Assembly (NCBI GenBank): GCA_033764315.1
Contig: JANRJA010000095.1
Location: 1 to 26,941 of the forward strand
Length of the DNA stretch: 26,941 nt
Direction: 5' to 3'
Source: Oculatellaceae cyanobacterium bins.114
GTDB lineage: Bacteria > Cyanobacteriota > Cyanobacteriia > Elainellales > Elainellaceae
The notes below the pieces were generated by a model, which was not told where the DNA came from, did no database searches, and saw only the letters and a list, made by a program, of their open reading frames with translations. Below are positions 814 to 26,940 of this stretch, piece by piece (position 1 is the stretch's first letter; each line of letters opens with the position of its first letter). Made by a program: the position numbers and the translations under genes.

Positions 814-916
814 TGAGGTGGAGAAATGGGGCATTTGTTGATGCCATCTACGCTCGACCCTCCCATGCACTCTACTGTGTATACACAAATCTTCTGATCT
901 AGTCTGGGCTGGGTTT

Positions 917-1000
917 GATCCTCCCTAACCCTCCTTAAAAAGGAGGGGATCGGACTCAAAATTCCCCTTGATCAAGGGAGACGGCGACAGCCGGGGGTGA
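917..1000. repeat. Double-hairpin intergenic element (cyanobacterial REP/SDR-like dispersed repeat)
   Basis: Hairpin CCCTCCTT-aaa-AAGGAGGG (929..947) and a perfect palindrome CCCTTGATCAAGGG (965..978), flanked by C-rich and G-rich ends. Confidence 0.6.
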
Positions 1001-6903: not shown

Positions 6904-7305
6904 AAACCTAAATTAACTTGATGAACTAACTTGCCAATAAAGCAATTTTTACAGGATTTTAAAAAAAAAGTGCAAAACTCATAAATTTTGGAACTTTCTG
7001 GTGAGTTTCTTTTTCATAGAAACTATCTGAATAGATGCATCAAGAAAAATTAAAATAACCTTGCTTAATAGGGACCAGTTGAGGTGTCATAGCCAAAACT
7101 GGCGGTGCTTACTGGGCAGTTTTGAGTATCTTACTCAATTTAAAGGAATTGATAGTCCTTTGGTCAGACATCCTGATTAAAGAGAAAAGGGACTGTATCA
7201 CTTATAGGTTTTGTAGGTCATGATCGTGTGACTTCTGCTAACTGTAGACGGGGTGCGATTTGTGTTGACAGAAACATTATTATTTCCACATTTTCGCTTC
7301 CGTTT

Positions 7306-8694
7306 ATGCGTGTTCCAACTGTTGCGTTTTATACTCTGGCAACGTTTACTGTGGCTGATTTAACACAAGCCGCGATCGCCAGTCCGACTCCTCCACCCTT
7401 AGATGCCAATGGCAAAGCGACGGAGCTGACTGAGGTTGAGGTAACTTTACCAGAGTCTATTGACTCTATCACTCCGCCTGAACCATTCATCACAGAATTT
7501 CCAGATCGGGCCTTTAACCAGGCTGGAGTTGACCCTCAACCTACCCTTAAAAGGAGTGTTGTGGGGGATGGAGCCTCGTTTGTGAGTGATTCACCTGATA
7601 TTTCGACATCTGATGGTTTGATGTCTGATGGTTTGACGTCTGATGTTCTAGCGTCTAACATTGCCCCACCTGAAGCTTTGCGGTCATTAGAACGAGTTAG
7701 AGTGCCTGAGCGATCCTCTAATCCTGATCTGGCTATACATGCGATCGCCCCTGATCTGCCGCCGCTAGTTGAGGCGATCGCCAGTGACGATTGGGTTGCT
7801 CCCTCGGAAACGGTTCCATCTCCTGATCTAGTGGCACTTGCTCAACCCCATCCAATCGAGACTCAAATGGAAATTGAGTTTCCGCTCTCGACATCGGCAG
7901 ATTTGTTGCGCGATCGCTCAACTTTGATGGCTCAATCGTCTGCCCCTTCAGAAGCTGAGATTGAAGAGTTGCAACAACAGTTGGAGTCACTTGAACCCGA
8001 TTTTTCAGATGACTATGGCAATGAATTTGAGGGGTCACCTGCGGTCACGATTTCTAACCCATCGGGTTTTGGAGCAGACAACTTTAGAGGCTTTGTGAAC
8101 TTTGGGTTTCAGTCAGAGACGCGCTATTCCGATCAGGCAGATGGCACGATGGGCATCGGTATTGGCTTAGGGGATGCTCAACGAGCCGTGGGGTTGCAGT
8201 TGTCTTATACCCTGGCGAGTTTTGGGGAAAATCGAGACTTTGGCACGGGTGGATTTAATGCTAAATTGCACCGCCAATTTTCTAATGGGTTAGGGATTGC
8301 TGTTGGCTGGGAGGGGTTTGCTACTACAGGCGAGGTGGACTTTGAGGACACTGTTTACGGCTCGATCACCCAAATCATTCGCACCAATGATGATCTCGAC
8401 GACGCATTTAGCCGCATCGCTTTAACCGCTGGGGTTGGTAATGGTCGGTTTCGCTCAGAGGATGCAGTGACGGATGACGAAGACACCGTAGGGGTGTTTG
8501 GCAGTATAGCGGTTCGGGTGGCTCGCCCCGTCAGTGCGATCGTAGAGTGGACAGGGCAGGATCTGGCAGTTGGTTTATCGATTACGCCGATTCGCGGGTT
8601 TCCTTTGGTGATTACACCTGCCCTACGCGACATTGCTGGGGCTGGAGATGGTGCCCGGTTTGTTTTAGGTACGGGAATTTCGTTCCAGTTTTAA
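7306..8694 (+). CDS. Predicted outer-membrane beta-barrel protein with a long acidic low-complexity N-terminal region
   Basis: Signal-like N-terminus MRVPTVAFYTLATFTVADLTQAAIA, about 220 aa rich in P/S/D/E, then about 220 aa of Gly-rich alternating strands. Ends in FVLGTGISFQF (terminal Phe, BAM-type signal). ATG 7306 is preferred to GTG 7228. Confidence 0.7.
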   Translation: MRVPTVAFYTLATFTVADLTQAAIASPTPPPLDANGKATELTEVEVTLPESIDSITPPEPFITEFPDRAFNQAGVDPQPTLKRSVVGDGASFVSDSPDISTSDGLMSDGLTSDVLASNIAPPEALRSLERVRVPERSSNPDLAIHAIAPDLPPLVEAIASDDWVAPSETVPSPDLVALAQPHPIETQMEIEFPLSTSADLLRDRSTLMAQSSAPSEAEIEELQQQLESLEPDFSDDYGNEFEGSPAVTISNPSGFGADNFRGFVNFGFQSETRYSDQADGTMGIGIGLGDAQRAVGLQLSYTLASFGENRDFGTGGFNAKLHRQFSNGLGIAVGWEGFATTGEVDFEDTVYGSITQIIRTNDDLDDAFSRIALTAGVGNGRFRSEDAVTDDEDTVGVFGSIAVRVARPVSAIVEWTGQDLAVGLSITPIRGFPLVITPALRDIAGAGDGARFVLGTGISFQF

Positions 8695-8717
8695 TGTCAA
8701 ACCTGTCAGGAGAATCG

Positions 8718-9251
8718 ATGAAATATACCAAGCGAACGCAGATTCAAACAAAAGGGCTGCATGGTTGGATGCTAGGTCTCTCGATTGCCAGTCTTTCGCT
8801 GGTTTGGAGTTTGGTTCAACCCGTCACCCCTGCCTCTGAGGTTCGGTTGGCTCAAGTGCCACCTAATCAATCAGATGTAACAGGGCCAGATGTAGGCAAC
8901 CTTCAAGGTCCAGATGTTCCTGGTGACTTTCCAGACGTTCCGGTTAACTTGGATGGGTTAGATTTGCTGCGAGAGATTATTGGGGATGAAACCGACCTGG
9001 ATGCGATCGCCCAATCCATTTCGCAAGCCCTCAATGAAGCCTATGAAGATTGTCGGGACTCCAATCAGGTGACTCAGACCAATAGCCCACGACGATTTGC
9101 TAGAGGGGCAACAGCACCAATCTGCACAGCCACCCCCAGTGCAGCCTGTCAGCGGCTTCAACAACTGATTCAAGAAACTCGAACTTTTATCAGCAATCAG
9201 CGGCAACTACAAGACCAGATTCGCTCAAATTCGCGAGTGCGGTTTTGGTGA
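8718..9251 (+). CDS. Secreted hypothetical protein
   Basis: RBS AGGAG at 8708..8712, basic n-region plus hydrophobic h-region, VRLAQ motif, PDV x3, three Cys in a helical C-terminal half. An alternative coupled start is ATG 8694 (TAATG overlap). Confidence 0.8.
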   Translation: MKYTKRTQIQTKGLHGWMLGLSIASLSLVWSLVQPVTPASEVRLAQVPPNQSDVTGPDVGNLQGPDVPGDFPDVPVNLDGLDLLREIIGDETDLDAIAQSISQALNEAYEDCRDSNQVTQTNSPRRFARGATAPICTATPSAACQRLQQLIQETRTFISNQRQLQDQIRSNSRVRFW

Positions 9252-9257
9252 AAAGAA

Positions 9258-9280
9258 GAAACGCGATGAATTGCGTCTGC
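9258..9280. repeat. Degenerate copy of the GAGACGCGATTAATCGCGTCT palindromic dispersed repeat
   Basis: GAAACGCGATGAATTGCGTCT matches the palindrome inside purK (26819..26839) at 18 of 21 positions. Confidence 0.65.
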
Positions 9281-9284
9281 TCTA

Positions 9285-9315
9285 AAGAGTAAAGAGTGAA
9301 GAGTGAAGAGTGAAG
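9285..9315 (+). repeat. Heptamer short tandem repeat (AAGAGTG)x4, STRR-like
   Basis: AAGAGTA AAGAGTG AAGAGTG AAGAGTG AAG, just upstream of the RBS of the next gene. Confidence 0.8.
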
Positions 9316-9338
9316 CAAGCAGAGAGGAGTCAAACTTG

Positions 9339-9920
9339 ATGAAAACTGGATTTCAAACTGTATTGGGAATGCTAATGGGAGTAACGGCGATCGCCCTGAC
9401 GACTCCCGCTTATGCTCAAGATCAGTTCAACAATGCTGCCATCTCATTTGATGTTGACACGGTGGTTGAGTTTGAGTTTGTCGAGTCACGCGGAGTCTAT
9501 CAATCGACGTTTGGCGTGATCAATTTAAACACGGGCGATCGCATCCCCCTGATTCGCGAAGTGCGTTCGAGCGATCGCGCCTCCACAGGCTTTTCTACGC
9601 TGGCAGATGACACAGGGACACCGGGTAACAGCGTATCCCAAGCTCTGGCGGAGTTTGAGTTTGAGGCAAATACGCCCTATGCCTTTTATTTAGAGTCGTT
9701 TTACAATGGGCAGCCCGCTGGAGTGTTCTATTCCATCGATGCTCGCAACTTGAATAACAGCCGACGCTTACGTTTTGAAGGAGATGCCTCAAATTTGGGG
9801 GCAGGCGGAGTTGTCATGCGATGGGATGATACGGGGTCATTGCTAGTGCCCCCTCAAGATCAAGATCGAGACTACAACGACTTCACAGTGCGGGCGGGCG
9901 GACATTTAGCCTGTCCCTAA
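9339..9920 (+). CDS. Secreted DUF4114-like beta-rich protein
   Basis: RBS GAGGAG, signal peptide ending [18 protein letters not shown], and C-terminal WDD...DRDYNDFTV, resembling the DUF4114 D-x-D-[FY]-N-D motif. Confidence 0.7.
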
Positions 9921-11125
9921 CTCAGCTTGGCAAAGTTTGCCGGGTCTTGATCGCGCCGATGCTTAATTGGAATCGCAGGCCCCTGTCTATCTCCGGCTAG
10001 AGTCGCTGTTTTCTCTAATGCTTCTCGCAGATGCTTAGCTGCATAAATAGACATGTCACGGGGTACATTGATGCGATCGCGCAGATATCGCAATGCGAGG
10101 TCAGAGCCATCAGGTGGGGTACAAACTTCACCCGTCATCATCAACGTTAGAGCACATCGCAACGCTTCATCAAAGACATGGTGATCGGCTGGGTTAACTT
10201 GAATGATATTGTCTCGATGCTTGATCACGCGCTGGAGGGCTTCTTGGCGTGCGGTTTCTGGCTCTGGATAAGTCACATCAGGTAACCCAAACCAGGGGCC
10301 GTTATCTACTCGATGCTTATTTAACAGCATTTGCGGTTCGCCATTTTCCCAACAGCCACCCATTTGAGGAGGCAAGTCATGAGCATGGGTGTGAAAGTCA
10401 CTTTGAGTACCCCGATAGGTGGGTCGGCTTTCCATTGCCTCAAACCAAGCTTTAAAACGAGGGTTGTCTTCTCGCAACGAGTAGCCTTTGTAGTAATACA
10501 GGCTAGCATTCATGCGTTCGACATAGGGAGTAAAGATCACATCAGCAGTGCCGAACTCTTCTAGAAAATAAGGACCGGGGGTATTGGCTAGAGCTTGCTC
10601 AACCTTATCTACCACTTCTGTAAATTGCTCCCGGCTGCGTCGCTCTTGCTGAGGAGATGTAATTGGGTAACAAAGCCAGGTGCACCAGGCTCTAAAGAGA
10701 AGCCGCTCCAATCGTCGCAAGGGAAGCACCATTGAGTCTTCCATCCCTCGTCCCAAGGGACCAAAGGCTCTTTCTAAAGCCAACAAAATGTCATCACTTT
10801 CAGTGATTAGACGTCCGTCCAATTCAATAGCGGGTAACATGCCAGATGGCACTTTGCGTTTGTACCAAATTTCTTTGTCCCCGTAGCAAAACATGGTTAC
10901 TTTTTCAATGCGGTAGGGAATTTGTTTTTCCTCAAGCCACAGCCAAACCTTTTGACAATAGGGGCACCAGGCATGGTTATCGCGGTAGAGAATTACCCGT
11001 ATATCGGATTCACTGTGACCAAATAAACGCAACCGGGCTTGAGCATTGGTAGGGCCATTAACGGTATCCATTTGAAAGTCCGTTAGACCTTCTAAGTCTG
11101 TCCAACTGAGAGGAGCAATGGTCAT
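9917..11125 (-). CDS. Glutathione S-transferase family protein (Cys-type, CPYC)
   Basis: [29 protein letters not shown] and TESDDI (GST-N), plus PGPYFL...TADVIF (GST-C). Start moved to ATG 11125. Overlaps the convergent gene by 4 bp at the stop codons. Confidence 0.92.
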
Positions 11126-11172
11126 GCGGGCGAGTGTCCTAAATGAATTCAACGTGATTTGATAACAACAAC

Positions 11173-11194
11173 TATTGTAAAGGTATTGTAAAGG
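11173..11194 (-). promoter_or_regulatory. 11-bp direct repeat giving tandem TACAAT -10-like boxes upstream of the GST gene
   Basis: TATTGTAAAGG x2 on the + strand; each copy reads TACAAT on the - strand, about 50-65 nt upstream of the GST ATG. Confidence 0.45.
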
Positions 11195-11412
11195 GCATCT
11201 TGTAGAGGGTGCGTTTCAAACCGGATTGATTGCGCTTTCCCTACGGTGCCTCTCAATTTTCTTCCGATACTCTCAGATTGCACAGTCAATACTCAGGAAC
11301 TTTTCAGATATCGTTCAAGGCGGTTTCAGCTTGACAACGCACTATAAGAAGCAAGACAGGCGAAGGATGAATTTCATACTTCACTGCCAACATGCTTTCA
11401 AGGAGAACAGAT

Positions 11413-11871
11413 ATGAAAAACTTAGTGCTTGCTGGATTAACCGCTTTAGTTTTAGGAGCGACCCTTGCTCCAATTGCCTCAGTCTCAATTGCCGCCAAGC
11501 CCCCTTCTGGTGATGCTAATCCTTCAGATTTGGGCAACCGCACCGTTGATGTTTCTCAGATCATTGCCGCCAAGCCACCCTCTGGTGATGCTAATCCTTC
11601 AGATTTGGGCAACCGCACCGTTGATGTTTCTCAAATCATTGCCGCCAAGCCACCTTCTGGTGATGCTAACCCTTCAGACTTGGGCAACCGCACCGTTGAT
11701 GTTTCTCAGATCATTGCCGCCAAACCCCCTTCTGGTGATGCTAATCCTTCAGACTTGGGCAACCGCACAGTGGATGTTTCTCAGATCATTGCTGCCAAGC
11801 CCCCTTCTGGCGATGCTAATCCTTCAGATTTAGGCAACCGCACAGTGGATGTTTCTCAGATCATTGGTTGA
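11413..11871 (+). CDS. Secreted tandem-repeat polyprotein (signal peptide plus 5 identical 25-aa units)
   Basis: RBS AAGGAG at 11400..11405; MKNLVLAGLTALVLGATLAPIASVSI-(AAKPPSGDANPSDLGNRTVDVSQII)x5-G*. All differences between repeats are synonymous in this frame. Confidence 0.93.
   Translation: MKNLVLAGLTALVLGATLAPIASVSIAAKPPSGDANPSDLGNRTVDVSQIIAAKPPSGDANPSDLGNRTVDVSQIIAAKPPSGDANPSDLGNRTVDVSQIIAAKPPSGDANPSDLGNRTVDVSQIIAAKPPSGDANPSDLGNRTVDVSQIIG
11491..11865 (+). repeat. Coding tandem repeat, 75 bp x5
   Basis: Units start at 11491, 11566, 11641, 11716 and 11791, with no spacers. Confidence 0.99.
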
Positions 11872-12075
11872 TCAATACATCAATTTTAATGAAAGACCAA
11901 TTGAGTGGGTGAACACGCTACTTAAAAACCTCTCCTAGCCTCTTTGAGCCAAGAATGATTGGATTCTAAAGGATCGCTTCAAAACCCTTATCTTTTTCCC
12001 CTTGCTCAGGACGAGTGAGGGGAAAATTGTTGATGCCCCTTTATGTTTGATCGAGTTTATGGGTAGTCCTAAACA

Positions 12076-12114
12076 AGTAAGGATATGCCGTGCGTCGTGC
12101 GGCATATCCTTACT
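12076..12114. repeat. Perfect 15-bp inverted repeat (REP-like hairpin or terminator)
   Basis: AGTAAGGATATGCCG (12076..12090) and CGGCATATCCTTACT (12100..12114) with a 9-nt centre. Confidence 0.8.
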
Positions 12115-12240
12115 CAAAAATCATTACTTTTAGAGGACTGCCAGTTTATGTAACTCTGTGCTTGATAGAATGCAACCATCCTCTTGTTACTGTAGCTGCT
12201 CTGTTCAGAGGCTCTCATCTTTCACTAATCAGGGAAACTC

Positions 12241-12918
12241 ATGTATAAAATTCCTAAACTAACCCCCAATCTTGTTTTAATAGCTTGTCTAGTTGTCTGT
12301 TTGTGGATTATCAGCATCCAACGCACTAACGCTCAGATTCCCTCTCTTGGCCGTCAAAACCCTATTTCAGATGTTACCAATAAGTTGAATCAAACGATTG
12401 ATAGCTTCAATGGCACAATTAACGAATATCGGCAAAAGATTGACGAATATGAAACTAAAATTGATGCCTATGATCAGCGGGTAACCTCAACCATTGATAG
12501 CCTTGAAGGAAGAGTACAAACTGAAATTGATAACATTTCAGGACGAGTTGAGGATGAAATTACAGGTATCCGTAGTGAGATTGACTCTTCCTTGGAAACC
12601 ATTGAAGGACGAATTGTTAGAACAATTAGCTCGTTGGGATGGGGCTTGTTGATTGGGGATAGTTTTGTGTCTGCCATCTTTTCAGGGTTGGCAACTTGGT
12701 GGGTGACTCGTCGCCTCAGACGCACGATTAGAACGCAGTTAGATGAGTTGAATGCAACCTTTAAAGAAGGGGTGAATACGGCGATGACACGGGGTGAGGA
12801 AGCGGCTCAAACTGTCACTGATGGCATCAGCCAGAGTAGTGTGTTTACTACGATTCAGGGGTTGCAAGCTGAAAACCAAGAAATTCTCCGACTGTTGCGA
12901 GAACTGAAAAACTCTTAA
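12241..12918 (+). CDS. Hypothetical membrane-anchored coiled-coil (apolipoprotein-like) protein
   Basis: Signal-like N-terminus ending RTNA|QIP, about 100 aa amphipathic helix with 7- and 11-residue periodicity, a hydrophobic segment LGWGLLIGDSFVSAIFSGLATWWVT followed by RRLRR, and a helical tail. Confidence 0.8.
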   Translation: MYKIPKLTPNLVLIACLVVCLWIISIQRTNAQIPSLGRQNPISDVTNKLNQTIDSFNGTINEYRQKIDEYETKIDAYDQRVTSTIDSLEGRVQTEIDNISGRVEDEITGIRSEIDSSLETIEGRIVRTISSLGWGLLIGDSFVSAIFSGLATWWVTRRLRRTIRTQLDELNATFKEGVNTAMTRGEEAAQTVTDGISQSSVFTTIQGLQAENQEILRLLRELKNS

Positions 12919-15451: not shown

Positions 15452-16129
15452 CTACTTTTGCGTTAACCTGCCATCTTCCATGTGAACGATGCGATCGGCG
15501 ACGTCTAAAATGCGGTTATCGTGGGTGACAAGCAAGACCGTACAACCTTCTTCTTTTGCGAGTCGCCGCATGATTTCAACGACATCTCGACCCGATTTGC
15601 TATCTAATGCTGAGGTGGGTTCATCGGCTAACAACAGCTTGGGATGGCTCACCAGTGCACGAGCGATCGCCACTCGTTGTTTTTGTCCACCAGAGAGCTT
15701 GTTGGGGTAATAGTCGATGTGATCGGCTAACCCCACTGCCGCTAACATAGTGCTGGAGCGATCGCGATAGTCTAATCTGGAAATGTGTTGATGTAGTTTG
15801 AGAGAGGTGCTGACGTTTTCCCACGCTGCCAAACATTCCAGTAAGTTATGAGATTGAAAAATAAAACCAATTTGGCTACGAGTCTGAATGAGAGTCTTTT
15901 TTTTAGCACCTCGCAGTTCACGACCCAAAATTTTGAGGCTGCCTTCCTGTGCCGATCGCAATGCGCCGATAAGCGTCAATAGGGTCGTTTTACCTCCGCC
16001 GGATGGCCCCTCTAAGATCACAACCTCACCCGGATAGAGATTTAGATTGACGTCGGTTAACACTACTTTTTGCAGTGCTCCCTGACCAAAGGTGTGAGTC
16101 AGATGATGAACAGCAACAACAGGTTCCAT
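15452..16129 (-). CDS. devA: DevA-family ABC exporter ATP-binding subunit
   Basis: Walker A GPSGGGKTT, LSGGQKQRVAIARAL, LLLADEPT and VTHDNRILDVADRI. Family-level call; orthology to heterocyst devA is not claimed. Confidence 0.9.
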   Translation of the reverse strand: MEPVVAVHHLTHTFGQGALQKVVLTDVNLNLYPGEVVILEGPSGGGKTTLLTLIGALRSAQEGSLKILGRELRGAKKKTLIQTRSQIGFIFQSHNLLECLAAWENVSTSLKLHQHISRLDYRDRSSTMLAAVGLADHIDYYPNKLSGGQKQRVAIARALVSHPKLLLADEPTSALDSKSGRDVVEIMRRLAKEEGCTVLLVTHDNRILDVADRIVHMEDGRLTQK

Positions 16130-16146
16130 AATAGATTTTATAGTGA

Positions 16147-17379
16147 CTAAAACACATCAGCAGGATCGGCAGATCGAAGCTTATTCATGGCGATCGCTCC
16201 TGAAATAATACACATCACCAGAGTTAGCATAAAAACTTGTAATGCAATTTCTGGACGCATAGTGAGAGGAATTCGAGTCAGGGTTGTGAGTAGACTATAC
16301 ATTCCTAACGATGTAAAGTAACCAGGAATAAAACCTAACACTGCCAGAATAACGGCTTCTTGTAAAACAACCGACAAGAGACTGACATCTGAGTAACCCA
16401 TTGCTTTGAGTGTGGCGTATTCAGGTAAGTGATCACTGACATCGGTATAAAGCACTTGATAAACAATGACTACGCCGACAATGAACCCGATCGCTGCTCC
16501 AAAATTGAGGATTTTCCCTTCTGGAAACGTCGCCCGAAAGTTTTGTTCAGCGGCGAGTAATTCTTCTCGCGTCATCACCCGCACAGCTTCAGGGAGATTG
16601 GCTTGCAACCGTTTTTGCACTGTAGCAATATCCTGTCCCGGTTCTACTGTTAAAACCCCAACAGTCACTTGATTTAAACTGGCCTGTCCATTTAACAAAG
16701 CATAATTCCAATCGCTCATGACGACATGACCCTTATCAAAAAAAGTGCTGCCTAAGCTAAACAGACCCACTACATAGGCTCGCCGATTTTGCATCACGGT
16801 TGTTACCCCACCTTGTTGCTCAAACAACGCAGGCACGGGGCCCAACTGGGATTGAGAGAGGCGATCAAACAGCACCCCTCCTGGGACATTTAACTGCTTG
16901 AGTTGTTGATTGATTTCAGGAGTATTAAAGACAGGTTGAACCGGGTTAAACGCCAAAATCTTAACCGTATTAGGGAAAAAGTCAATCGCTTGAGTTTCTG
17001 GTTTCGGCAGGTTGTGATTGGCTGCGCTACGAGCAAAATCTTCTGGATTAACCCACGGGGCAGACCCAATATAGAGCGGGCTAGCCGTTGCTACTCCAGC
17101 GATCGCATCGGCTTGATAAAGATAGATTTTGGGAAACGAGCCAAAGTCAATCGTGGGGGCATAGGCAGACACCAAAAACAAATCACCATTCAAGTTTTGT
17201 GGAACGAGAGTAATACCGTCAAACAACAGTGCTCTCAATCCGAGTTGCGTAAAGATCAAAATATTAGAGAAAGCAACTCCCGTCATAGCTACTGCCAATC
17301 TCATTTTTTGGTGAGATAATTGTGCCCAAGCGAGTGGTTTATGAGCACGATAGTAGTCGTTTAGAGATTTAAGAAACAT
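16147..17379 (-). CDS. devC: DevC-family ABC exporter permease (FtsX/MacB-like)
   Basis: PLAWAQL...RLAVAMTGVAF, IVYQVLYTDVSDHLPEYATLKAMGY and KLRSADPADVF. Start moved to ATG 17379 because the upstream extension translates a low-complexity tract. Confidence 0.9.
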   Translation of the reverse strand: MFLKSLNDYYRAHKPLAWAQLSHQKMRLAVAMTGVAFSNILIFTQLGLRALLFDGITLVPQNLNGDLFLVSAYAPTIDFGSFPKIYLYQADAIAGVATASPLYIGSAPWVNPEDFARSAANHNLPKPETQAIDFFPNTVKILAFNPVQPVFNTPEINQQLKQLNVPGGVLFDRLSQSQLGPVPALFEQQGGVTTVMQNRRAYVVGLFSLGSTFFDKGHVVMSDWNYALLNGQASLNQVTVGVLTVEPGQDIATVQKRLQANLPEAVRVMTREELLAAEQNFRATFPEGKILNFGAAIGFIVGVVIVYQVLYTDVSDHLPEYATLKAMGYSDVSLLSVVLQEAVILAVLGFIPGYFTSLGMYSLLTTLTRIPLTMRPEIALQVFMLTLVMCIISGAIAMNKLRSADPADVF

Positions 17380-17438
17380 AGAAAAAGAAAGAAGAAAGAA
17401 GAAGAAATAAAAAGAAGCAAGGATTAAAAAGCAGAAGC
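17380..17438. repeat. Purine-rich low-complexity, heptamer-like tract (AGAAAGA-type)
   Basis: AGAAAAAGAAAGAAGAAAGAAGAAGAAATAAAAAGAAG..., directly upstream of the devC start. Confidence 0.6.
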
Positions 17439-17545
17439 CTGTGTCGAGTGCTGTTCGCGTCAGCATAATGCACTACCTAGGCACTATTCAGGTAGTATTC
17501 AGGTAAAGCAGATTCCACCCTGAATGGTTTTGTCCTTCATCCTTT

Positions 17546-18736
17546 CTAATTCCCTAACTGAATTGTGACGCGGACTTGCATATTGGTCAGGTTGGCTACT
17601 TTGTTATTGTCTTGAGGATTGATGCGAATTTTGACTTCGACAACACGAGTATTTTCGTCAGTAGTGGGGTCTGAAGAATTGCTAGAGAGTTTTCGTGCCC
17701 CTACTTGCAGACCAATGTGATCGACAGTGCCGTGCACTTCTCCTGCAAAACCACCATACTCGCTGACCAATGTGACGGGTTGTCCCCGTTGCACTTTAGT
17801 GATTTCAGTTTCATAAACCTCGGCGATCGCAAACATTTCATCGGTGCGCCCTAACTCCACAATGCCTTCTTGCGTGTTGACCTGCTCGCCCACACGAGTG
17901 TTGATGCGTAGAATCTGTCCTGCCACAGGCACTCGCACTTGCGTGTCTTCTAAATCGGCGCGTCGTTGCTCTACGGCGATGCGGGCACGCTCTAACTCAG
18001 CTCGTGCCACCCGAATGTCTACGGGACGCACCTCTCTCAGTTGGGCTAAAGTCTCTCGTTCTTGAGTGATTTGCTGACGTAATGTTTGCACAGTGTTATC
18101 CAATTGGGCTTGGCGTTGAGTCATATTAGCTTGTGCGGTTTCATAGTCTTCTTGAGCTTGATCTAATGCAACTAAATTGGTTGCCCCTTCTGAGTAGAGG
18201 GTTTGATTTCGCTCATAGTTGCGCTGTGCCTGCCGCAACTCAGCCTCAGCACTGGCGATCGCTCCCTGACGTTCTAGCGTTTCCGTTCGCAATTGTGCTT
18301 CTAACCGCCCAATATTGGCTTCCTGAGCAGCCAGTTCTGCTTCTTTGGCATCCCCGGCTTGTGCCTTCTCTAACAGAGCTTGATAATAGTCCACATTTTT
18401 CTGAGCTTCTTCTAAATCTCGTTGGCGGCGATCGCTACCCTGCAACACCGCAATTACCTGTCCGGCTTCAACCCAGTCTCCCTCCTGAACAAGAATTTGG
18501 TTGACCCGGCTATCTTGAGCATTGGGAACTGACAGTTTAATCACTTCTCCATTCGGGGTCAGACGTCCTAACGCCACAATGGTCGGCGTTTGTTGCGTCT
18601 CGCTAGGAGTTGCACTGGAAGTCACCTCAGCTTGAGACAATCCAGAACAGGCTGCAACCCCACTCAACAGGGTTAACACAGCAATCAGATAAATGGGGCT
18701 GTGCCTATAAAGAAAAGGAAGTTGCGATCGCACCAT
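17546..18736 (-). CDS. devB: DevB-family membrane fusion (HlyD-like) adaptor, probable lipoprotein
   Basis: Lipobox-like GVAAC, VALGRLTPNGEVIKLS, long coiled coil, AIAEVYETEI and RVVEVKIRI...LTNMQV. Confidence 0.9.
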   Translation of the reverse strand: MVRSQLPFLYRHSPIYLIAVLTLLSGVAACSGLSQAEVTSSATPSETQQTPTIVALGRLTPNGEVIKLSVPNAQDSRVNQILVQEGDWVEAGQVIAVLQGSDRRQRDLEEAQKNVDYYQALLEKAQAGDAKEAELAAQEANIGRLEAQLRTETLERQGAIASAEAELRQAQRNYERNQTLYSEGATNLVALDQAQEDYETAQANMTQRQAQLDNTVQTLRQQITQERETLAQLREVRPVDIRVARAELERARIAVEQRRADLEDTQVRVPVAGQILRINTRVGEQVNTQEGIVELGRTDEMFAIAEVYETEITKVQRGQPVTLVSEYGGFAGEVHGTVDHIGLQVGARKLSSNSSDPTTDENTRVVEVKIRINPQDNNKVANLTNMQVRVTIQLGN

Positions 18737-26085: not shown

Positions 26086-26940
26086 TTACGGATACCAAAT
26101 TTGTTCGATCGCTTCGGCTATCTCAATCGCTTTATGACGACTGGTTGTATCTAACAGAGTGGTAACATGCCCTAACTTACGACCCAGACGAGATTGGGCT
26201 TTACTATACCAGTGAACAAACGTGTTGGGCAATTGCGCCAGGCGGTGTCGTTGGTCGAGGTAAGAGCTTTCAGAGCTTTCATACCCCAGCAAATTGACCA
26301 TGACCGCTCCCTTGCAGCACATGGATGGGTTGCCCAGCGATAACCCACTGACAGCTCGCAGATGTTGCTCAAACTGAGACGTTTCACAGGCATCCAGGGT
26401 GAAGTGCCCAGAATTGTGGGTGCGGGGGGCAATTTCGTTGACTAGCACCTTGCCCTCTGGGGTGAGAAATAGTTCAATGCCAAAGATGCCGACGACTTGC
26501 AACTTTTCCATTAGAGTATGGGCGATCGCCTCTGCTTGTTGAGTCACGGTTGCGTCAAACCCAGTCACAAAGACGCGCCGACAGATCTGATTGACTTGCT
26601 GCGTCTCAACCACCGGATAAGTCACAATCTCGCCAGTGTGCGATCGCGCCACCATAATGGCCAGTTCTTTTTCAAAGGGCACAAATTCTTCGACTAAGAG
26701 CGATCGCCCCTGTAGGTGTTGCAATTTGGTTTGTAATTCTGCCGCTTCACGAATAATCCAGGTGCCCTGACCGTCATAACCGTGACGCCGAGCCTTTAAC
26801 ACCAATGGAAAGGTAGTGGAGACGCGATTAATCGCGTCTCCACCAGGATTAATCGCGTCTCCACCAGGATTAATCGCGTCTCCACCAGGATTAATCGCGT
26901 CTCCACCAGGATTAATCGCGTCTGCTATAGCCGCACATTG
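26086..26940 (-). CDS. purK: N5-carboxyaminoimidazole ribonucleotide synthase (5' partial, runs off the window)
   Basis: VLKARRHGYDGQG, VEEFVPFEKEL, NEIAPRTHNSGH, SQFEQHLRA and RKLGHVT. Manual translation shows the frame stays open from 26805 to the window end: ...QCAAIA(DAINPGG)x4DAINRVSTTFPLVLK. Confidence 0.96.
   Translation of the reverse strand, partial: QCAAIADAINPGGDAINPGGDAINPGGDAINPGGDAINRVSTTFPLVLKARRHGYDGQGTWIIREAAELQTKLQHLQGRSLLVEEFVPFEKELAIMVARSHTGEIVTYPVVETQQVNQICRRVFVTGFDATVTQQAEAIAHTLMEKLQVVGIFGIELFLTPEGKVLVNEIAPRTHNSGHFTLDACETSQFEQHLRAVSGLSLGNPSMCCKGAVMVNLLGYESSESSYLDQRHRLAQLPNTFVHWYSKAQSRLGRKLGHVTTLLDTTSRHKAIEIAEAIEQIWYP
26816..26923. repeat. 28-bp palindrome plus 21-bp tandem repeat (about 4.7 copies) inside purK
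   Basis: Perfect palindrome GTGGAGACGCGATT|AATCGCGTCTCCAC (26816..26843). Unit GATTAATCGCGTCTCCACCAG at 26826, 26847, 26868 and 26889, with a 14-bp partial copy at 26910. Confidence 0.97.

Follow-up and report, generated by a model that had tools for sequence, protein, structure and literature searches.

The repeat gene and its flanking signals

The window, by which we mean the whole 26,941-nucleotide stretch of DNA that was analysed, contains an ORF of 152 amino acids (11413..11871, +; the window gene) that reads as MKNLVLAGLTALVLGATLAPIASVSIA, five copies of AAKPPSGDANPSDLGNRTVDVSQII, a Gly and a stop codon, in agreement with the preliminary description. The first 27 residues (11413..11493, +) form a predicted Sec-type signal peptide, with a Lys in the n-region, a mean Kyte-Doolittle value of 2.15 over residues 4-22, and S-I-A at positions -3 to -1, after which signal peptidase I is predicted to cut; the N-termini of homologues are equivalent and have A-x-A-like ends. 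The five tandem 75-bp units (11491..11865, +), delimited by Tandem Repeats Finder and alignment, are followed by the last Gly codon and the TGA stop (11866..11871, +). Tandem Repeats Finder places the array start at 11488, with a period of 75, 5.1 copies and 94% matches, and the echo of the unit junctions previously seen at the end of the signal peptide comes down to no more than two codons (ATT GCC) at the beginning of the repeat DNA. A Shine-Dalgarno sequence, AAGGAG (11400..11405, +), lies 7 nt 5' of the ATG at 11413 and is kept in the G026 orthologue, and a terminator-like hairpin of 14 pairs with a T-rich tail follows the gene (11994..12026, +), which looks monocistronic.

Among the 75 positions of the unit, 11 vary between copies (in codons 1, 3, 4, 5, 7, 10, 13, 14, 18, 19 and 23, the same list as in the preliminary description), and all 11 are synonymous third positions that leave the amino acids unchanged. 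If any random change to the consensus unit has a chance of 0.26-0.30, depending on transition bias, of being synonymous, the probability of 11 synonymous sites out of 11 is 3e-7 to 2e-6. The core of the window gene is thus under strong purifying selection, as had been claimed. The 25-aa unit is acidic (pI 4.4), contains three prolines and lacks Cys, His and aromatic residues; the whole protein is likewise free of Cys.

The statement that there is no other domain also held, with 0 individually significant Pfam stretches and 0 NCBIfam families for the window protein; the apparent Pfam matches to Molybdopterin_N, ParB_C, DUF6634 and Gp5_C are noise summed over the repeats. The search for a known structural repeat family returned none in Pfam, NCBIfam or the PDB, where every match to the core profile had E >= 1. 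The top score in the ESM Atlas (0.84) was at chance level, Rfam gave no match over 10900-12400, and a word-indexed search for homologues of near length returned P0001 only.

Upstream of the gene, five pentamers (CACAG, CTCAG, TTCAG, TTCAA and TTCAG; 11281..11329, +) stand at an exact spacing of 11 bp, forming a candidate site for an OmpR/PhoB-type response regulator, and the end of the array is followed after 14 bp by TATAAG (11343-11348). A consensus promoter scan found no sigma-70 site. The G026 orthologue has the same five-member array at an equal distance to the ATG, and synteny with the same-genus genome is limited to the window gene and ~140 bp upstream. This array is the only one in the 6.64-Mb genome, on both strands, with at least five pentamers of this kind in 11-bp register; of 60,000 random genomic segments of 303 bp, 43 had a chain of at least three (exactly three in 42, five in one). 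The array suggests that the window gene is under the control of a response regulator, which would bind at the pentamers.

Paralogues and the NHLP-type export operon

The window gene had been described as an orphan, but three further family members are present in the same genome, besides 24 clusters worldwide. One paralogue (C16:47029-47532) has a Sec signal followed by five units of 29 aa, and its amino-acid-changing codons (4 of 4) fall at unit positions 21-22 and 27-28, that is, at the end of the core and beyond. The other two (C113:154250-154468 and C11:19762-19989) have a double-glycine (GG) leader ending in GVAGG, one core and 3-6 further residues. The CTB bacteriocin, Nif11, NHLP and bacteriocin_sig models match only the GG end of these leaders (L003 and L004), below their cut-offs.

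The C113 gene opens a curated export operon of the NHLP type, which includes a C39-peptidase ABC exporter and is recognised by TIGR03896 (326 bits, cut-off 161), TIGR03796 (the C39 ABC protein; 1139 bits, cut-off 853) and TIGR03797 (981 bits, cut-off 709), together with a short HlyD that stays below the cut-off of TIGR03794 (147 bits, cut-off 156). This operon is present at all four GG-type loci with a downstream flank. Among the scanned ORFs of the window there is no C39-peptidase ABC exporter, the sole exporter being DevBCA (15452-18736), and the window gene itself has no linked gene for a protease, an exporter or a receptor. The RppA box, a motif given in PMC13421787, has three matches with at most 2 mismatches in the C113 locus, where 0.69 would be expected (a count of three was reached in 6 of 200 shuffles), one of them 169-183 nt upstream of the GG-type gene, and no match upstream of the window gene. 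We regard this enrichment as a weak lead only.

A rare family with one conserved core

The family core is PPSGDxNPSDLxNxTVDxSxxI. An exhaustive profile search of 1.84e9 representative proteins of all lengths gave 25 matches, corresponding to 24 real clusters, and it reached nothing beyond proteins with an explicit core, with no detectable homology to other families. The remaining match, P0017 (1186 aa), was left out of the family; its 20 short matches are confined to profile positions 17-26, and it carries unrelated Pfam domains. The core was found in 9 of the 57 genomes of its cyanobacterial order, and the core motif strings are absent from the literature searched. The family is tiny and taxonomically narrow, without a Pfam or NCBIfam model. 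The window gene belongs to this rare and previously undescribed family of exported cyanobacterial peptides, since other genes, which use a dedicated peptide exporter, encode single copies of the same peptide.

Three types of leader precede the core, namely double-glycine, Sec, and Sec with a propeptide, and the core occurs in 1-5 copies. By cluster, a single core follows a GG leader in 4 of 24, a Sec signal in 4 and a Sec signal with propeptide in 3, while one further Sec-type cluster has the core joined to a fused domain; Sec signals with two, three and four cores account for 6, 4 and 1 clusters, respectively, and one is a fragment. GG-leader members always have a single core. In single-core genes the mature N-terminus lies 0-3 residues before PPSGD (4 residues before its counterpart in G042), with a short tail after the core, and in most of them the mature product has only ~30 aa. 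The earlier proposal of a multi-copy peptide precursor is strengthened to the extent that the core is the whole mature product of single-core genes, with either a GG leader or a plain Sec signal; the array itself may plausibly be cleaved.

In the core alignment, sequence is conserved in the cores and variable in the spacers, which supports the view that the 25-aa unit is an autonomous exported peptide module. Of the features expected of homologues, variable copy number and a conserved core were found, whereas the junction, II[A/G]-[A/S][K/L]PP, is kept only in a compact sub-lineage; elsewhere the spacers are unrelated, Arg/Pro-rich stretches of 4-15 residues. This variability of the junction across the wider family counts against cleavage. 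The conserved core residues are Asp, Asn, Ser and Thr, with no conserved His, Cys or Met. A reading of the conserved N-x-T as an N-glycosylation sequon was rejected, several members having Pro at x. Units of one array are 1-8 nt apart, whereas those of the G000 orthologue differ from those of G026 by 12-20 nt, and both species-specific residues are common to all five units, so the units evolve in concert within arrays.

Curli CsgA likewise consists of a Sec signal and five short repeats, and a building block of the matrix or of a functional amyloid could be assembled from repeats of ~22-25 aa such as these. An AlphaFold2 (AF2) model of the whole window protein, from an 8-row alignment, places a strand of 5-9 residues in each RTVDVSQII segment, though with very low confidence (pLDDT 46.5, pTM 0.36) and with no confident fold or beta-solenoid. 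GG-motif secreted proteins do enable biofilms in cyanobacteria (PMC4997328). Synechococcus elongatus needs the EbfG proteins, which are small and have a GG motif, to form a biofilm. Nevertheless, the prolines in every unit, the absence of a curlin-repeat or any other family match, the return of explicit-core proteins alone by the profile search and the small size of most single-core products make such a structural role very improbable.

Gene neighbourhoods of the homologues

In three genera (G044, G042 and G003) a CzcB-like adaptor and RND pair is found 180-240 bp downstream of the Sec-type family gene. These pairs are orthologous, with adaptors 52-78% identical, and the G042 pump passes the cut-off of TIGR00914 (CusA/CzcA heavy-metal RND; 799 bits against 701). 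A kinase of the RppB equivalog, a nickel-sensing type, is found four genes away in G042 (666 bits, cut-off 400) and directly upstream in G032 (654 bits, same cut-off). In G225, from another family, genes for the peptide, an HK, an RR, an adaptor and an RND pump that is not orthologous share one strand. A two-component system together with an HME-RND pump accompanies the G042, G044 and G003 homologues, and is present in part at G032 and G225 and not at the window gene. These contexts hint at a role in the envelope or in metal stress more than in antibiosis.

The same neighbourhoods also speak for a protein acting uncut, a multivalent periplasmic or surface protein whose five acidic, D/N/S/T-rich modules buffer cations or metals, or assist efflux or the stress response. 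Its capacity would rise with the number of repeats and cleavage would be unneeded, as in proteins with repeated sites that act as a sponge, and Asp, Asn, Ser and Thr are indeed the conserved residues. Set against this, the usual ligands of Ni, Co, Cu and Zn are His, Cys and Met, which the core does not conserve, no metal gene is near the window gene, and the window genome has no orthologue of the homologues' pump, the top matches being ~27% identical. Moreover, the members with GG leaders and PCAT export leave the cell as single 27-30-mers, as one would expect of a free peptide more than of a chaperone in the periplasm. Precedents are known from Synechocystis, where (PMC4335983 and PMC13421787) copMRS-copBAC (with CopM) and nrsRS-nrsBACD combine a small Sec-exported protein, a two-component system and an HME-RND pump, as in the G042, G044, G003 and G032 contexts, and RppB/RppA drives the nickel operon nrsBACD. 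CopM differs in that there is no sequence relation to it and no conserved soft-metal ligand, and in that the window genome lacks the pump. On balance we consider an uncut metal buffer unlikely, though well worth keeping in mind.

No modifying enzyme or receptor is adjacent to the window gene among the scanned window ORFs, as noted before, and none of the 18 loci with inspected flanks (14 Sec-type, 4 GG-type) has an adjacent modifying enzyme. This bears on a further alternative, a multi-core RiPP precursor of the cyanobactin or graspetide kind, in which an enzyme encoded elsewhere would cross-link Ser/Thr with Asp/Glu. Some RiPP classes typically have precursors with several cores, the residues concerned are abundant in the core of this family, and there are ATP-grasp genes both in the window, 8.5 kb upstream of the gene (PGM1-like), and at a distance of 11 kb from the precursor on C113. 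However, genes for CTP synthase and triosephosphate isomerase, both housekeeping functions, stand between the window ATP-grasp gene and the window gene, and the leaders in front of the one core are of three unrelated kinds, of which two are plain Sec signals without a recognition sequence. A leader or recognition sequence combined with a clustered enzyme or protease was found neither in the window nor at the homologous loci. Bufferins, in the account extracted from PMC12452194, are likewise small periplasm-directed peptides with a Sec signal in place of a classical leader, but these RiPP copper chelators depend on Cys motifs and on MNIO and DUF2063 enzymes; the window family has no Cys and so is not of this type, and no MNIO or DUF2063 Pfam matches were found among the window neighbours. 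Modification as a RiPP is in our judgement the most improbable of the readings.

A 'companion' protein was also considered as an obligatory partner and rejected as a rule, because 27 of the order's 57 genomes have it whereas 9 have the core, and because in the window genome it lies far from all four core genes. A complex prediction with two window units gave a score of 0.00, where the mark was 0.32, and speaks neither for nor against a contact.

Proposed mode of action

In our view the window gene probably encodes a Sec-exported concatemer of five acidic modules of ~22-25 aa, from a small and unnamed family of cyanobacterial exported peptides. The family appears, with similar likelihood, to deliver its core in three interchangeable ways, by a GG leader with an NHLP-type C39 ABC exporter, by a Sec signal with one core, or by a Sec signal with 2-5 cores, the last of these being at its largest and most compact in the window gene. 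The peptide is most likely unmodified, resembling class II bacteriocins or pheromones and not a RiPP, because the core works behind unrelated leaders without an accompanying modifying enzyme.

A promoter dependent on a response regulator would produce a monocistronic mRNA, and Sec export with signal-peptidase cleavage would release a disordered periplasmic chain of 12.5 kDa. Trimming at the II-A/A-K junctions, between the two alanines, would then yield five identical peptides equal to the products of the single-core genes. These may act in the periplasm or, judging from the neighbours of the homologues, outside the cell via a TolC-type tripartite exporter, and tandem amplification with concerted evolution would raise the dose of one invariant peptide per transcript.

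We give trimming of the chain into five peptides about an even chance, and the chain acting uncut a considerable but smaller one. An uncut multivalent chain is a strong rival, since it accounts for the identical repeats equally well. We know of no established mechanism by which signal peptidase cleaves internally, and Lys-Pro and Arg-Pro bonds, such as precede the core here, withstand trypsin-like enzymes. Nor is it typical of bacteriocins, or of pheromones, which evolve fast, to be hydrophilic, acidic and strongly conserved.

A more elaborate version, which we find rather improbable, is that of a 'polyprotein pheromone', where an invariant peptide, exported by a GG leader and PCAT, by Sec, or by Sec as 2-5 cores that are cut apart, would be an extracellular or periplasmic signal for two-component systems (of the RppB type and of a second kinase type) that control efflux pumps. 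If true, filamentous cyanobacteria would communicate envelope or metal stress by means of peptides, with the gene dosage set by repeat number and uniformity maintained by concerted evolution. More generally, the recurrent place before CzcBA-like pumps, and the RppB-type sensors close by in two genera, suggest that the envelope or metal-stress systems of cyanobacteria include a peptide component that has gone unrecognised.

Comparison with known systems

The nearest systems are the peptides with GG leaders and PCAT export, which include class II bacteriocins, pheromones and the three-gene NHLP/Nif11 transport of cyanobacteria. They share with the family the GG leaders and NHLP-type operon of the paralogues, and small, apparently unmodified products, whereas the window protein starts with a Sec signal, lacks a GG motif, carries five tandem cores and has no transporter encoded next to it. 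Its peptide is acidic and hydrophilic, and neither amphipathic nor cationic, unlike class II bacteriocins. Among the class IIa bacteriocins of Gram-positive bacteria, homologous mature peptides are made with a GG leader in some cases and with a Sec signal in others, but we know of no Sec-dependent class II bacteriocin with tandem cores.

A signal peptide followed by identical short copies in one ORF is also the design of yeast alpha-factor and of fungal repeat proteins processed by Kex2. The window gene is bacterial, and its junction, QII-AAK-PP, has no dibasic pair, so that its likeness to eukaryotic repeat pro-peptides is confined to the architecture. Should the array be processed, it would be, to our knowledge, a bacterial counterpart of eukaryotic multi-copy pro-hormones, and the same core behind a GG leader, a Sec signal and a multi-core Sec precursor would constitute a natural experiment on the evolution of export route and dosage. 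An unmodified peptide of 25 residues is easy to synthesise and test.

The repeat gene and its paralogues

The gene at 11413..11871 (+) codes for 152 residues, comprising a hydrophobic N-terminus (MKNLVLAGLTALVLGATLAPIASVSIA) that is probably a Sec-type signal peptide, 5 x AAKPPSGDANPSDLGNRTVDVSQII and a Gly immediately before the stop codon. AAGGAG is found 7 nt ahead of the ATG, and a terminator-like hairpin lies 3' of the gene (11994-12026). Tandem Repeats Finder gives a period of 75 and 5.1 copies, and ORF translation and repeat comparison bear out the five identical units and Gly-stop reported in the preliminary description, which also correctly saw no other domain: the Pfam matches of the protein are sums over the repeats, with no individually significant stretch, and the NCBIfam models gave no match. 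The mature chain (12.6 kDa and pI 4.4, computed from the sequence) contains no Cys, His, Met or aromatic residues and looks disordered or peptide-like. The AF2 model (8-row alignment; pLDDT 46.5, pTM 0.36) presents weak strands only, inside each RTVDVSQII segment; no relative of the core was found among solved structures, and the ESM Atlas gave no lead for the protein.

The gene had been considered an orphan, which proved wrong, as a six-frame search of its own genome (G000; 6.64 Mb, 251 contigs, 90.7% complete) revealed three further genes with the conserved core of the unit, which starts with PPSGD. One of these, C16:47029-47532, joins a Sec-type signal to five units of 29 aa (ARPVSGDSNPSDLRNSTVDTSEVIRPNTK); an ORF of 68 aa that combines a signal peptide with a tail rich in Pro, Thr and Ser (L002:2044-2250) follows it directly. 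The other two are small ORFs with one core and a tail of 3-6 residues, whose N-termini end in a double glycine (GG), …ELSDEQLKGVAGG in C113:154250-154468 and …VLEGVAGG in C11:19762-19989.

Selection acts on the peptide, as had been proposed. A script comparison of the five 75-bp units, which are pairwise 3-8 nt apart, identified 11 variable nucleotides, all third-position and synonymous, exactly at the codons listed previously. Since the synonymous share of random substitutions in this unit is 0.26-0.30, the probability of 11 out of 11 by chance is P = 3e-7 to 2e-6. The orthologue in G026, a genome of the same genus, agrees, with nine synonymous variable sites and one changed codon, and so does the C16 paralogue when four of its five units are compared (leaving out the first, which starts with ATPP): ten variable sites lie in amino-acid-preserving codons, and all four amino-acid-changing codons are at unit positions 21-22 and 27-28, at and past the end of the core. 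In addition, the arrays evolve in concert: units within one array are 1-8 nt apart, those of the window and G026 arrays 12-20 nt apart, and the species-specific residues A/S at position 9 and V/T at position 21 are common to all five units of each species.

One conserved core behind different leaders

The reading as a multi-copy precursor had anticipated homologues with a conserved core and variable copy number, and profile and genome searches found such a family. A 29-position core profile was run against all 1.84 billion representative proteins (E <= 1e-3), giving 25 matches, of which 24 were kept; P0017 (1186 aa) was dropped, as its 20 matches are short and confined to profile positions 17-26 and its domains are unrelated. 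The core is encoded behind GG leaders (one core, four clusters), behind Sec-type signals (one core, four clusters; one core with a fused C-terminal domain, one; one core after a propeptide of ~35 aa, three) and behind Sec-type signals in multiple copies (two cores, six clusters; three cores, four; four cores, one, P0001), with a fragment as the last cluster. Copy number thus varies across the family, reaching five per gene in the window gene and its same-genus orthologue. These proteins are annotated as hypothetical in their sources, and no paper was found carrying the core motif strings.

The distribution of the core is narrow. Of the 57 genomes in the GTDB family of the window, a family that makes up its entire order, 9 carry it (6 of 38 high-quality genomes, 7 of 25 genera), as do 7 of 401 genomes of a class-wide sample, where outside this family it was found in only one of 359, G225, as three degenerate units. 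Scanning 185,579 species genomes for the core pattern turned up 20 stretches, of which five were confirmed, all from the same family-level genomes, filed as Microcoleus, Chroococcidiopsis, Oculatellaceae and Leptolyngbyaceae cyanobacteria. Two more loci came from a metagenome scan, one with a 2-core gene closely related to the window gene, the other (L070:2228-2724) with a 1-core gene beside a 2-core gene. The signal peptides and first cores of this pair are nearly identical, and the pair therefore seems to capture a change in copy number brought about by gene and unit duplication. At L016 ~1435-1578 (G035:C84) there is a single core in decay (…CDLNPQDRSNPTVDSSQVIG-stop), which may be the remnant of a disrupted family member; it lies partly inside an ORF of 94 aa that is read in a different frame of that strand and whose N-terminus is transposase-like by eye.

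In single-core members the mature N-terminus, from the GG cut or the predicted signal-peptidase cut, falls 0-3 residues ahead of PPSGD (four residues ahead of its counterpart in G042), and the C-terminus 3-8 residues past the …I-I/V-x-P end. The predicted mature product is essentially the core alone, which suggests that the module alone makes a functional peptide of some 26-30 aa. Across multi-core members S6, D8, N10, D13, N16 and V19 are invariant, and G7, P11, S12, T18 and D20 are at least 90% conserved, while the spacers are unrelated, ranging from 3 to ~15 residues and Arg/Pro-rich at the long end. The junction motif noted previously holds, as II[A/G]|[A/S][K/L]PP, within a compact sub-lineage (window, G026, P0001, P0008/L071 and G031; five copies in the window and G026, four in P0001, two and three in the others), and does not extend to the other multi-core members. 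The chances that the five units are cut apart are about even; a chain that stays uncut and is multivalent is a somewhat less probable, still serious, alternative.

Export operons and comparison with known systems

A bona fide peptide exporter adjoins the GG forms of the family. The C113 gene heads an operon coding for a bacteriocin-type transport-associated cNMP-binding protein (TIGR03896, 326 bits, cut-off 161), a short HlyD matching the C-terminal part only of TIGR03794 (147 bits, cut-off 156), a C39-peptidase ABC exporter (TIGR03796, 1139 bits, cut-off 853) and a TIGR03797 protein (981 bits, cut-off 709), which corresponds to the three-gene NHLP/Nif11 transport cluster described from cyanobacteria (PMC3140520). 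This operon is present in all four GG-type loci with a downstream flank (G000:C113, G026:C66, G026:C3 and G031:C92); in the fifth, G000:C11, the contig stops 683 bp past the gene, which adjoins a clostripain-family (C11) peptidase with a PPC domain. The C113 and C11 leaders match the CTB bacteriocin, Nif11, NHLP and bacteriocin_sig models at the GG end only, below the curated cut-offs. Two successive GG motifs (…SVSGG…GVAGG), a duplicated leader before a single core, are found in the C11 gene (L005:13766-13990) and in P0025. The HlyD has ~200 aa against the 421 positions of the model, its best stretch being the last 130, and follows the 360-aa TIGR03896 protein; this short form is kept in three operons (L006:14002-14601, L037:8168-8749 and L040:10052-10660).

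The nearest known kind is that of leader-exported unmodified peptides, which includes the GG/PCAT class II bacteriocins and pheromones. Of their two defining features, the GG leader and the adjacent exporter, the window protein has neither, whereas its paralogues have both. Nor does it fit multi-core RiPP precursors, bufferins, Kex2-type pro-peptides or curli. Given that the core lies behind three unrelated leaders and that no modifying enzyme was found beside core genes in any inspected locus, a leader-dependent RiPP pathway is unlikely. The window protein would be exported by Sec, and its peptide would act outside the cytoplasm without modification. To our knowledge, no one has described a peptide that is made both singly behind a GG leader and as tandem cores behind a Sec signal; among the matches listed, the literature on multi-core, Sec and RiPP comprised eukaryotic and MNIO cases only.

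Pumps, kinases and a companion protein

We inspected 14 Sec-type loci with flanks, several of which are orthologous pairs and therefore not independent. An adaptor and RND pump are present in four (G044, G042, G003 and G225), and a DevBCA-type exporter within 4 kb in two (window and G026:C20). The gap between gene and pump is 180-240 bp in G044, G042 and G003. The pumps of these three are orthologues of one another, with 52-78% identity between adaptors and, in the single pair examined (G044 and G042), 68% between RND proteins, and the G042 RND scores 799 bits against the CusA/CzcA heavy-metal model (cut-off 701). In G225 a kinase and regulator lie between core gene and pump, all on the same strand; its pump is not orthologous (24-28% identity), representing a second, independent peptide-pump association. 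A search of the window genome for an orthologue of the CzcBA-like pump found none.

Nine of the 14 loci encode a histidine kinase or response regulator no more than about four genes away. Two of the kinases score as RppB equivalogs (cut-off 400 bits), that of G032, encoded directly upstream, at 654 bits and that of G042 at 666 bits; they have a sensor domain in common (38% identity over 257 aa), and those of G031 and G225 share a different one (28.5% over 221 aa, E 9e-26). RppB/RppA are described as activating the nickel-tolerance operon nrsBACD of Synechocystis (PMC13421787), and an earlier example of a small exported protein whose gene accompanies those of a two-component system and an HME-RND pump is copMRS/copBAC (PMC4335983). 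Considering the acidic composition, the invariant Asp/Asn/Ser/Thr and the pump and two-component contexts, we favour a role in envelope or cation stress, or as a signal feeding such circuits, over a classical membrane-active bacteriocin. Against a chaperone for Ni, Co or Cu stands the absence of His, Cys and Met.

Some core genes are accompanied by an exported protein of ~100 aa with no Pfam family and a conserved …NLVNLARNGYFQEQGIPSH… (L047:2207-2503, L042:7602-7928, L037:2187-2528 and L069:4499-4861), which adjoins the multi-core genes of G031 and G026:C6 and is fused behind the core in P0012 (44% identity, E 1e-20). This companion is far more widespread than the core (27 of the 57 genomes of the order, up to 8 matches per genome), and in the window genome it is unlinked to core genes.

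Surroundings of the window gene

The window gene is surrounded by genes for a GST-like protein, a coiled-coil membrane protein, a DUF-type oxygenase, an FMN reductase, an AraC regulator, two exported proteins with no known family (one weakly DUF4114) and a convergent DevBCA exporter 3.6 kb downstream, with housekeeping genes farther away. The G026 orthologue adjoins a GAF-PAS kinase, and a GG-type gene accompanied by its export operon lies 9 kb away. Alignment of G026 with the window is limited here to the gene and ~140 bp upstream, indicating that the gene moved as a unit.

This conserved upstream stretch contains five pentamers (CACAG, CTCAG, TTCAG, TTCAA, TTCAG) with exact 11-bp spacing at 11281-11329, followed 14 bp past the end by TATAAG (together 11281-11348). 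Direct repeats that keep step with the DNA helix and reach up to the -35 position are a usual mark of OmpR/PhoB-type activators, and the array is likely a response-regulator site, through which such a regulator would control the gene. The same array precedes the G026 orthologue (L038 ~860-960 (-)), and in the 6.64 Mb of the window genome no other site has at least five such pentamers in register. The only site with at least four strict pentamers (CTCAG/CTCAT) is at G000:C113 ~154594-154637 (-) (L006 ~16595-16640), where four in 11-bp register form a 22-bp unit twice, ~180-210 nt upstream of the GG-type single-core gene; it is kept in G026, and its last repeat agrees with the published RppA box in 13 positions out of 15.

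Elsewhere in the window, a peptide-ligase-like protein of the ATP-grasp kind, its C-terminal domain being PGM1-type, is encoded at 1348-2937, 8.5 kb upstream of the repeat gene, with CTP synthase and triosephosphate isomerase in between. Three consecutive ORFs with no clear family occupy 7228-9920 (+), coding for a protein of 488 aa, one of 177-234 aa that bears a signal peptide, and an exported one of 194 aa whose DUF4114 match is weak. At 26826-26923, a minus-strand ORF running off the end of the window contains 4.7 perfect copies (100% matches) of a 21-bp tandem repeat.
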